Source of the DNA: a virus
Strand: one strand, 5' to 3'
Virus genome (UHGV): UHGV-0120264
Length of the DNA stretch: 12,149 nucleotides
Within the stretch, counting starts at the first letter, position 1; the number at the start of each line of letters is the position of its first letter. The notes under the pieces are model-generated. The model saw nothing but the letters and a program-made list of their open reading frames with translations. It did not search any database and had not been told where the DNA came from. Made by a program: the position numbers and the translations under genes. This document shows, piece by piece, positions 8,501-11,233 of this stretch.

Positions 8501-11233
8501 ATGCCTGATATAACTCCAAATGTTGTAATTGGGATGCCTTCTCAACTCTTCACTATGGCTCGTTCTTTTAAAGCCGTAGCTAATGGAAAAATTTATATCG
8601 GTAAAATTGACACTGACCCTGTAAATCCTGAAAACCAGATTCAGGTTTATGTAGAGAATGAAGATGGTTCTCACGTTCCTGTTTCGCAACCAATCGTTAT
8701 CAATGCTGCTGGATATCCTGTATATAACGGACAGATTGCCAAATTCGTTACTGTGAAAGGACACTCTATGGCTGTGTACGATGCTTATGGTACGCAGCAG
8801 TTCTATTTTCCGAATGTGCTGAAGTATGACCCGGATCAGTTACGGCAGCAATTAGAAGATCCTGATGGTGCTAAAAAATACCCTGAATTACAGATTGCAC
8901 GATGGCGGGATGATAAAGACGTTCGCGGGTGGGGGGCGGATGACTCTGGGAATAGAGATTCAACACAGGCTTTTCTTGACGCCGCATCTAGCGCAGGAAA
9001 TAGTGGTTTGGTTCATGTGCCTTCTGGTGAGTTTATAGTTGATGCATCGAAAATAGATATTTCACGCTTCTCCGGTGATGGTGTTCTAATCAGTAATGGT
9101 GTTCGCATTTCTGTTAATCCGCCGATGCAAAGTTTCTCCATTGGACAAAGAAAACTTGCGACCCTGAATTTTGGTGATGATATCAATGCGCCAACTATAT
9201 ATGCGAATGCACAAAATGCATTGCAGGGAATAGCTTGTGTAAGGCATGAAGGTATTGAGAAGGTTTTTATCACTCAACAGGTTGGAGGTTCTAACTGGGG
9301 AACGGACACCCTCACAAGGATCAGTGAGTGGCACTATACAAGCGATGGTTCAACTCTTTATGTTGTGACATTTACAGAGCCATTGCCTCTTGGTCACGGT
9401 TCAGATCTTTCTGCCACAATAGAGAACGGTGAACTATATCTGTTTACAACAACAATTGCTGAGACTGGTTCCTCTCTAGGAGGGAAGGGGTATTCAAAGA
9501 CAAAATGGAAAGGGGCATCAACATCTGCTGAAGATATAACTCATTACCGAGTATTTGGTGAGCCGGGTGATAATAATCTGATTAACCTTGCGCAGCGGGC
9601 AAGTATTTGTGTATCTAATGATGGGCGATATGTCATATTAATTGCGACATCAAACGCTGGGACTGGCCGCTTTTTATACGTATATGATCGCAAAGAAGTG
9701 GAATCTTCTTCTAACCCAATGAAAGTTAGACCGATTAATGGTCCTGTTCCACTTGTCCGTGGTAAAGGTCAGTATGGTGCAACACTTCAGGGTATTACAT
9801 CAGATAGCAGATATATTTACACAATTTGGGGTGGCGTTCCTGCAAGATGCGTAAGGACAGTACAGATTTATGATATGGGTGGTACGCTAATACGTTCATT
9901 TCCTGTATCACTTGCCGCATCACTTTATACAGAGACTCAGTTAAATGGTTCTGACTCTAAAATCGGAGTTCCGGTTAGCTTTGAGCCTGAAGGGCTGGCA
10001 ATAAGAGGTGATGAACTTGTCTGTGGTGCTATGGATGTATGGAAAAGCGCAGGGGATGTTGTAAGCCATCGTGGTAAAAATTGGGTAAGTATTGTTACTG
10101 GTGATAACAAGGGAAATCTTCCGACAAACAGGTCTTATTGGTTAAAAACATCGCTTGCAGCGACAAGTGGTGAATGGGATTCAGGCGCAACATATAAATC
10201 AGGTGATTATACTCGCAGAAATAAGCATCTGTTTGGAATAGCAAACCTGTCTGATATTCTTGGCAACCATCCAGTGCATGGTGCAGAATCCGATCCGTAT
10301 ACCGGAACCGCGCATCAATATTATGCTGGAACTGATATCGCCTTTAACCGTGAGCACGGTTCATTTACTATTGCGATATTTGACGAAGCCATTGGAGAGT
10401 ATACCAAATCCCTCGAGTTGAATTATGGAAATAACCTTAACCTGTTTGATACAGATTACGGACATGACAATAATTCATGGGTAAGTACGAAAGCAGTATT
10501 CGACTCAAACTTTCGAGGTATGCAGTTCCGTTCTAAAGATGGGAATACTGCGGGTGGTGCTTATATTGATATCCATGCTGCTGATTGTCCATCTGCGGCT
10601 GGTGAGTTGATACTTGCCTCTACAGATGGAGGTGTCGTCAGACTTAAGCAGGGGAATGTAACAGTATTTTCTGCGACTAAAGATACTACATCGACATGGG
10701 CGACGACGACATTAAGGCCAACAACTGATAACCAGGTATCACTTGGAAGGTCCGTTAACCGCTTTTCTCAGGTCTACGCAGGGACTGCAACTATAAATAC
10801 ATCTGATGCAACAGAGAAAACGGAAGTCAGAACTCTTTCCGATAAAGAGCAGGCGGTTGGGTTAGCTCTTGTTGATGAAATTGGTTTTTATCAATGGCTT
10901 GATAGTGTAAAAAATAAGGGAGCTGATGCCAGACTTCATGCCGGACTTACGGTGCAACGGGCAATGGAAATATTCAGAGAGAATGGACTTGATCCATTTA
11001 AATACGGAGCGATCTGCTATGACAGATGGGATGCATATACAGATACAGATCCAGCTGTTTATGATGATGAAGGTAACCTTGTTCGTGAGGCTATAACTAT
11101 TACGCATGAAGCAGGAGAACGCTATGCATTCAGAAATGATGAATTACAGTATCTAATGATTGCTGCATTAGGTATACGTCAGAAAAATATTATAAAGAGG
11201 ATTGAAGAACTGGAAAATAAGCTTGCAAATTAA
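8501..11233 (+). CDS. Tailspike: P22/Sf6-type head-binding N-terminal domain, unrecognised central receptor-binding/enzymatic region, putative self-cleaving C-terminal intramolecular chaperone domain
   Basis: Start taken at the ATG at 8501 (AGGA 8 nt upstream); the track's 8348 start is a TTG extension through AT-rich sequence. The first ~118 residues ([46 protein letters not shown]...NVLKYDPDQ) match the Sf6/P22 head-binding domain almost exactly. The last ~140 residues begin with SDATEK (Ser and Lys five apart), resembling peptidase S74-type chaperone domains. Confidence 0.85.

Follow-up and report, generated by a model that had tools for sequence, protein, structure and literature searches.

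A P22-like prophage tailspike with a predicted GA-1-type five-bladed propeller and its association with a rare, teichoic-acid-like capsule locus of Escherichia coli

In the virus genome UHGV-0120264, whose full stretch of 12,149 nucleotides we refer to as the window, the open reading frame at positions 8501-11233 of the plus strand encodes a tailspike of 910 residues. We regard it as next to certain that a P22-like prophage (Lederbergvirus) has encoded this protein as its tailspike, a homotrimer of modular build in which a head-binding domain is followed by a neck, a central receptor-binding module, a stalk and an intramolecular chaperone, and structure prediction has, in our view, settled that its central domain is a five-bladed β-propeller of the type found in the phages phi11 and GA-1 and not a six-bladed propeller of the sialidase type. 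The explanation that accounts best for the data, and which we favour as reasonably probable, describes a capsule-specific spike that probably also cleaves its polymeric receptor and that is paired with a capsule-modifying acetyltransferase encoded next to it.

The tailspike gene is complete, starts with an ATG with an AGGA ten bases upstream and codes for a protein that is identical, including its start, to the RefSeq entry WP_098704038.1 ('phage tailspike protein'). The predicted masses are 99.3 kDa for the precursor, 83.0 kDa for the mature protein (residues 1-767) and 16.3 kDa for a released C-terminal fragment (residues 768-910). A preliminary description of the window, made from its sequence, had pointed to this reading frame and to several motifs, all of which we recover, namely S-x-D-G motifs at residues 279-289 (positions 9335-9367), 371-382 (9611-9646) and 432-443 (9794-9829), the start of a putative chaperone at residues 768-779 (10802-10837) and a terminal EELENKLAN at residues 902-910. 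The near-invariant P22/Sf6 head-binding domain that it had recognized is borne out by our searches, where residues 1-118 (8501-8854), which would dock the trimer on the tail, cover with their first 113 positions the full Head_binding profile of Pfam (PF09008, E=1.8e-65) and are nearly identical to gp14 of Sf6 (PDB 7sg7, E=9e-64), with further matches to the P22 structures 1lkt and 2vky. At the level of DNA, many P22-like phages match the gene with 88-92% identity, a similarity that ends at nucleotide ~340-437 of the gene. Modular swapping of the receptor domains that follow a P22 head-binding domain is a familiar phenomenon. In a comparison with the spike gene of the E. coli strain E4, 23 codons differ, with 18 synonymous changes among them. 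Of these codons, 21 are located in the head-binding domain, at residues 3-104 (8501-8812 of the window and 20001-20312 of the E4 locus L002), whereas the body, which is ~99.9% identical among genomes, differs at two residues only. This concentration of differences thus suggests a recombination junction just after the domain, with the body moving as a cassette.

Behind the head-binding domain, residues 119-213 (8855-9139) form a neck and a small α/β subdomain with a GAxxxGxxDxTxAF-type motif, as assigned from secondary structure and from the identity to other tailspikes, which over residues ~119-197 amounts to 44-58% with the CUS-3 endosialidase, phiv205-1 and many other spikes. Sequence matches to proteins in the PDB are confined to the two ends of the protein (residues 1-118 and ~720-905), there is neither a Pfam family nor a solved structure above threshold for residues 200-720 in searches by sequence, and NCBIfam contains no family for the tailspike. 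The claim that its centre resembles neither P22 nor Sf6 thus holds for most of the region but not for residues ~122-181, which in profile searches are weakly similar to the start of the β-helix tailspikes of Sf6 and 9vvr and to polygalacturonase.

To characterize the centre, we have used an AlphaFold2 monomer model of residues 119-767 calculated from 11 sequences, with a mean predicted local distance difference test (pLDDT) score of 75 and a predicted template modelling (pTM) score of 0.71. The model is all-β, in agreement with a monomer model of the full-length protein, and places its strands in five groups of four (residues 244-291, 304-352, 366-417, 428-468 and 490-530), which together define the five-bladed propeller at residues 214-530 (9140-10090). 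The propeller is followed by an insert with the aromatic residues W547 and Y565 and a low-confidence linker (residues 531-621, 10091-10363), with pLDDT values below 50 at residues 594-620, and by a nine-stranded β-sandwich at residues 622-725 (10364-10675), which would be the counterpart of the 'tower' found after the propeller in phi11-type proteins. Residues 726-767 (10676-10801), including Arg754, constitute the stalk, as assigned from the end of the End_tail_spike profile (PF12219) and from the alignment with the endosialidase endoNF. Residues 726-776 do not fold in the monomer model, in keeping with a stalk, and residues 726-767 should form a triple β-helix in the trimer. The best fold matches identified by Foldseek are five-bladed propellers. 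The preliminary description had left open whether the S-x-D-G motifs mark propeller blades or β-helix rungs and had proposed structure modelling and fold comparison to decide; our models argue for five blades, in which each motif forms a hairpin that joins adjacent strands, in blades 1, 3 and 4, and we have thus rejected their reading as a β-helix. A right-handed, pectate-lyase-like β-helix as receptor domain was equally rejected, since only ~60 residues after the neck resemble an N-terminal cap and the rest is modelled as propeller and sandwich. The same applies to membership in the endosialidases (GH58), as there is no match to PF12217, as PF12219 is covered over its last 38 positions only and as five blades are modelled.

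The aromatic insert following the propeller weakly matches PF02839 (CBM5/12) at residues 517-547 (E=1e-3, below the cut-off), and its alignment columns are missing from gp12 of the Bacillus phage GA-1. With the family-conserved residues W547 and Y565, the segment at 10049-10225 (residues 517-575) may constitute an extra carbohydrate-binding element.

The body belongs to a family which in PHROGs corresponds to phrog_16355 (unknown function, E=1.5e-191) and phrog_1171 (tail spike, E=2e-140) and for which HMMER, run exhaustively on 1.84 billion cluster representatives, returns 231 clusters at E<=1e-3. In 5.8 billion proteins searched by word index, the middle module is attached to several different N-terminal adaptors, including the P22 head-binding domain, the N-domain of the T7 tail fibre and others. 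The closest named member of the family is GA-1 gp12. This neck appendage protein is also by far the top structural match in BFVD (E=2e-41, TM score 0.61), and in blastp, residues 153-890 of the tailspike align with residues 86-732 of gp12 at 28.8% identity over 740 columns (E=5e-77). The homology extends over the whole body, thus indicating that propeller, sandwich, stalk and chaperone have been inherited together.

The family is characterized by a strongly conserved set of residues in the propeller. Among 160 family representatives, His299 and Glu495 are conserved in 100%, Gln242 in 99%, Glu497 in 98%, Thr341 in 96% and Gln430 in 90% of the sequences, and GA-1 gp12 retains every invariant propeller residue. 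In the model, Gln242, His299, Gln430, Glu495 and Glu497 lie in, or immediately ahead of, the innermost strands of blades 1, 2, 4 and 5 and would thus surround the mouth of the central channel. The short motifs at the start of the blades correspond to those of phi11 Gp45, where NAVMQ165S, GGH209GT211H...DGELWIYS, QPMQ330GITYD and FQE385AE387GL find their equivalents in NALQ242G, LGH299GS...NGELYLFT, ATLQ430GITSD and FE495PE497GL of the tailspike, which suggests that its invariant residues line the equivalent cavity. In phi11, a cavity whose wall is formed by Gln165, Thr211, Gln330, Met164 and Met329 has been proposed to accommodate the N-acetylglucosamine (GlcNAc) of wall teichoic acid (PMC4901313). 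In a profile search of PDB sequences with the middle region, only weak matches to the fibres of P68 and NF5 were obtained. The family PF21311 (Phage_RBD_prop) did not match the tailspike at E<=1, with three out of 11 homologues showing weak matches (best E=0.002).

That spikes which differ in specificity retain these residues so strictly points to a role in catalysis or metal binding, and we consider an enzymatic depolymerization of the receptor by the spike to be nearly as likely as not. The main competing view, to which we ascribe a lower probability and which we hold to be rather unlikely, assumes a spike that is equally capsule-specific but whose propeller binds only, with penetration relying on other factors or on a capsule that is thin or patchy. 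It would be in line with the fibres of phi11, P68 and 80alpha, which bind wall teichoic acid and are among the best structural matches, all without reported catalysis, and with the match between the invariant Gln, His, Gln and Glu residues and the cavity proposed for GlcNAc in phi11. Propeller 'depolymerase' folds and S74 chaperones have been catalogued, but the role of such propellers in phages was described as unclear (PMC12491483), which would also be compatible with a binding function. Conversely, the conservation of His299, Glu495 and Glu497 would fit a catalytic or metal-binding site better than a site that determines specificity, and both the fold and the positions of the residues resemble those of the five-bladed glycosidase clans, which include the families GH43, GH32, GH62, GH68, GH117 and GH130. 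The characterized P22-like tailspikes, those of P22, Sf6, HK620 and CUS-3, are all known as enzymes.

A more far-reaching proposal, which we consider improbable, would place the propeller of GA-1 gp12 and phi11 in an undescribed class of depolymerases for polyol-phosphate polymers, a 'teichoicase' with a site formed by His299, Glu495 and Glu497. If correct, the class would be common to phages of Gram-positive bacteria acting on wall teichoic acid and to E. coli phages acting on teichoic-acid-like K capsules, staphylococcal receptor-binding proteins that are currently seen as pure binders would be enzymes too, and the acetyltransferase described below would define acetylated and non-acetylated variants of such K antigens.

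Returning to the capsule-specific and probably polymer-cleaving spike that we favour, we turned to its distribution. Out of 5426 complete genomes of E. coli, five contain the tailspike, those of the strains E4, EC24, TUM10008, MS 16-3 and GMF065, in the last of which the gene lacks its first 297 bases. The same five genomes are the only ones that contain a complete region 2 of the kps locus of strain E4 (4.9 kb, megablast), at 99.9-100% identity. For this overlap the naive chance is 1/C(5426,5), about 3e-17, and about 1e-9 if three independent lineages are assumed, and since spike and K locus are separated by ~1.3 Mb, linkage offers no explanation. E4, EC24 and TUM10008 form one lineage with core genes, sampled at a distance from these loci, that are 100% identical, whereas the core genes of this lineage, MS 16-3 and GMF065 are 1.3-3.5% apart, thus defining at least three unrelated backgrounds. 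The group-2 kps locus of E4 (21550-36396 of the E4 locus L013) encodes four proteins in its serotype-specific region 2, a TagD-like cytidylyltransferase (PF01467), a TagF-like cytidine diphosphate (CDP)-glycerol glycerophosphotransferase (PF04464), a 701-residue Capsule_synth protein and a GT8 glycosyltransferase. Group-2 loci with TagF-like enzymes make teichoic-acid-like capsules of the glycosyl-glycerol-phosphate type (PMC5974469). It is thus likely that the receptor of the spike is a rare, teichoic-acid-like group-2 capsule. In the strains SE15 and SCU-102, 73% of the E4 K locus is shared, but the transferase is different.

A second line of evidence for a capsule target comes from the gene that follows the tailspike in convergent orientation, at positions 11389-12099 of the minus strand. 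It encodes a protein of 236 residues with hexapeptide repeats (PF00132), which is 39% identical to NeuO of CUS-3 (E=2e-39), the O-acetyltransferase of the K1 capsule, and which retains all six active-site residues of NeuO and OatWY (M117, H130, W154, R157, W203 and R205). The phase-variable heptanucleotide repeat of neuO was searched for in this gene and not found. Its G+C content is low (34-40%), and the gene is contained in exactly the same five of the 5426 genomes as the tailspike. The encoded acetyltransferase probably modifies the same polysaccharide that is targeted by the spike. The parallel to the tailspikes of K1 endosialidase phages drawn in the preliminary description is thus stronger than first thought, since a NeuO-like gene is located downstream, as in CUS-3.

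The relationship between propeller and capsule is repeated independently in a sister spike of 799 residues (P0008), represented by strain 222 (L017 4001-7056 and L018 12001-17522), which is 34-36% identical over the body and carries no S74 domain. It is also found in the phages Gally and vB_EcoP-683R2, both with the same head-binding domain, and the receptor-binding protein RBP1 of PGN829.1 belongs to the same propeller family. The latter is found in prophages of several O-types, and the authors doubted that its receptor is the O-antigen (PMC10408124). We have not found specific literature on phage Gally, on phage 683R2 or on the function of the central domain of GA-1 gp12. The gene of the sister spike is followed not by an acetyltransferase but by a GDSL esterase. 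The sister spike is present in 44 of the 5426 genomes. At least 40 of these 44 appear in the set of 60 listed carriers of a second CDP-glycerol K locus, against a chance expectation of 0.5. Region 2 of this second locus, which is complete in 61 genomes, codes for GT29-family, TagF-like and tetratricopeptide repeat (TPR) proteins, and it is also found in LF82, NRG857C and the probiotic strain A0 34/86 (O83:K24:H31), the K24 type of the latter indicating that the second locus is probably that of K24.

These patterns have to be weighed against a co-occurrence that has its origin in hitch-hiking, shared descent or a selection for the acetyltransferase alone and not in the specificity of the spike, an explanation that we judge very unlikely. 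The limited number of five genomes, with E4, EC24 and TUM10008 belonging to one lineage, leaves room for such an effect, and since in four of the five genomes a prophage remnant occupies the same site, vertical inheritance would explain part of the pattern. Yet the spike body and K locus of MS 16-3 and GMF065 are at least 99.4% identical to those of the E4 lineage despite the divergence of their core genes, the two loci are far apart on the chromosome, and for the sister spike the same kind of association is seen with another K locus in many lineages, including LF82, NRG857C and A0 34/86.

The preliminary description had named capsule or O-antigen as target, of which the host genomes support the former. 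An O-antigen-specific spike with an incidental correlation to the capsule, although it is what one would assume by default for a Lederbergvirus prophage (PMC10408124) and although two hosts out of five, among them the strain with the intact prophage, are of type O7, appears most improbable and lost its leading place after four O-types had emerged, since near-identical spikes reside in unrelated lineages of the types O7 (E4 and EC24), O11 (TUM10008), O4 (MS 16-3) and O23 (GMF065), as assigned from the wzx/wzy names given by PGAP, since the acetyltransferase is of the cytoplasmic NeuO type that suits capsules exported by ATP-binding cassette (ABC) transporters, and in view of the doubts raised for RBP1 of PGN829.1.

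At its C-terminus, the tailspike carries an intramolecular chaperone of the Peptidase_S74 family (residues 768-910, 10802-11230), as had been proposed from a Ser-x4-Lys motif. The family profile PF13884 matches residues 768-829 with 31.7 bits (at a cut-off of 22 bits), and the C-terminal ~190 residues match PDB sequences of solved chaperone-bearing fibres with E-values between 9e-36 and 9e-13, including 7y5s (E=9e-36), T5 pb1 (4uw8, E=7e-33) and endoNF (3gw6, E=4e-17) as well as 9vvr and GA-1 (3gud). In these alignments, the segment INTS768DATEK773TEVR corresponds to INTSDARLKTEVR in 7y5s, to INTADARLKNDVR in an S-to-A mutant of T5 pb1 and to IVTANGERKTEP in the S911A mutant of endoNF. Ser768, Lys773 and Arg754 align residue for residue with Ser911, Lys916 and Arg897 of endoNF, where Ser911 and Lys916 form a dyad and where the stalk residue Arg897 takes part in cleavage (PMC8326128). 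The crystallized fragment released from the GA-1 protein (3gud) starts with the residue that is aligned with Ser768. The last 38 positions of PF12219 (End_tail_spike) fall on residues 730-767 with an E-value of 1e-4, which is below the cut-off. In the model, helices span residues 781-827 of the chaperone, a small sheet comes next and the C-terminus is a long helix at residues 879-909, the latter in accordance with the helical tail that had been suspected. From its sequence, we thus predict a cleavage on the N-terminal side of Ser768 (10802-10804), with Lys773 (10817-10819) acting as general base.

In the mechanism that we envisage for a capsule-cleaving spike, the head-binding domain would fix the protein to the tail, and the chaperone would drive the trimerization of the stalk before cutting in front of Ser768, with Lys773 as base and Arg754 contributed by the stalk, to yield a mature spike of 83 kDa and a fragment of 16 kDa. 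Each of the three propellers would then present a central cavity lined by Gln242, His299, Gln430, Glu495 and Glu497, which would recognize the rare group-2 K capsule, presumably a teichoic-acid-like polymer of glycosyl-glycerol-phosphate. The spike would probably also cleave this polymer and thereby allow the short-tailed virion to reach the outer membrane. In the lysogen, the NeuO-like enzyme would O-acetylate the capsule, which may alter the antigen and protect from superinfection, mirroring the relationship between CUS-3 and K1.

Several observations weigh against this mechanism. The closest solved relatives, the proteins of phi11, 80alpha, P68 and NF5, are described as receptor binders and not as enzymes, and since the residues conserved in the tailspike are read as sugar-binding in phi11, depolymerase activity is the weakest step. 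A comparison of the family profile with phi11 Gp45 in hhalign gave a probability of 1.6%, which is not significant, so that the correspondence of the cavities rests on the fold and on short motifs. The structures are monomer models of moderate confidence (mean pLDDT of 75 and 66), in which linkers and stalk are poorly modelled. The link to the capsule is based on five genomes from about three lineages, and the polymer made by the E4 K locus is predicted from its genes. Cleavage, binding and depolymerase activity are here all predictions, and the prophage of the window is defective, with a truncated coat gene, although its tailspike is intact.

A comparison with known systems defines which parts of this arrangement are shared. 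The tailspike resembles CUS-3 in its P22-like prophage, its head-binding domain, a neck module that is 44% identical over residues ~120-197, the presence of a propeller, the stalk and the S74 chaperone, the adjacent hexapeptide O-acetyltransferase and the group-2 capsule as target. It differs from CUS-3, whose propeller is a six-bladed GH58 sialidase that is unrelated in sequence and that targets polysialic acid, and whose neuO contains the heptanucleotide repeat that is missing here. To GA-1 gp12 it is homologous in its propeller, its sandwich, its stalk and its S74 chaperone, whereas gp12 attaches by an N-terminal region of the phi29 type in place of the P22 head-binding domain, carries no CBM5/12-like insert and belongs to a phage with a Gram-positive host. 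The staphylococcal receptor-binding proteins phi11 Gp45 (5EFV), 80alpha RBP (6V8I), the P68 tail fibre (6IAB) and NF5 Gp17 (9M7X) equally consist of a five-bladed propeller that is followed by a tower, but they are attached by a coiled-coil stem to a siphovirus baseplate, contain no S74 chaperone, have no reported enzyme activity and show no significant overall sequence similarity to the tailspike. The sister spike shares the propeller family and the link to a CDP-glycerol group-2 K locus and differs in the missing S74 domain, the GDSL esterase and the identity of the K locus. What appears new is the presence of a phi11/GA-1-type module in a P22-like coliphage and the tight genomic tie of this module to teichoic-acid-like group-2 capsules.

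Phage enzymes or binders are known for few capsule types of E. coli, and a list of depolymerases and binders for its K antigens contains none for teichoic-acid-like capsules based on glycerol-phosphate (PMC12488582). The spike thus constitutes a testable candidate with E4, MS 16-3, TUM10008 and EC24 as matched hosts. It would also illustrate how one receptor module serves phages across the Gram divide where the chemistry of the target is similar, which would help to predict host range from sequence. Together, spike and acetyltransferase would constitute the second case, next to that of CUS-3 with K1, in which a group-2 capsule is targeted and also remodelled by a prophage, which matters for the typing of capsules, for serum resistance and for phage therapy.

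The prophage is inserted between espL1/yniD and thrS, with the tailspike gene at its right end. In strain E4 it appears complete and contains genes for terminase, portal, scaffold, coat, gp4, gp10, gp26, gp7, gp20 and gp16 and the arc/ant genes (immI), which are followed by the tailspike. As in P22-like prophages, the tailspike gene thereby closes the late region, behind immI and the genes of the ejection proteins. The remnant in the window has kept an integrase (50-1258), a DUF551 gene, a fragment of the coat protein (2769-3530) that matches positions 155-368 of the 423 positions of the profile, gp20 (3422-4786), a gp16-like gene (4786-6945) and mnt/arc (7824-8075). The prophages of EC24 and TUM10008 show deletions that are unlike those of the window, and spike and acetyltransferase are intact in all of them.

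In the 155-bp gap between the tailspike and acetyltransferase genes, an inverted repeat of 9 bp (GTCACTCCT ... AGGAGTGAC) with a loop of 17 nucleotides is found at positions 11318-11352, which may act as shared terminator, although a simple scan made no call. Two small genes located between the ejection genes and mnt/arc, at positions 6946-7269 of the minus strand and 7355-7807 of the plus strand, are possible moron genes, one coding for a predicted coiled-coil protein of 107 residues and the other for a protein of 150 residues. A shorter overlapping reading of the latter gene is annotated in TUM10008 as a transthyretin-like or peptidase-associated domain protein, under an accession that differs from that in EC24.

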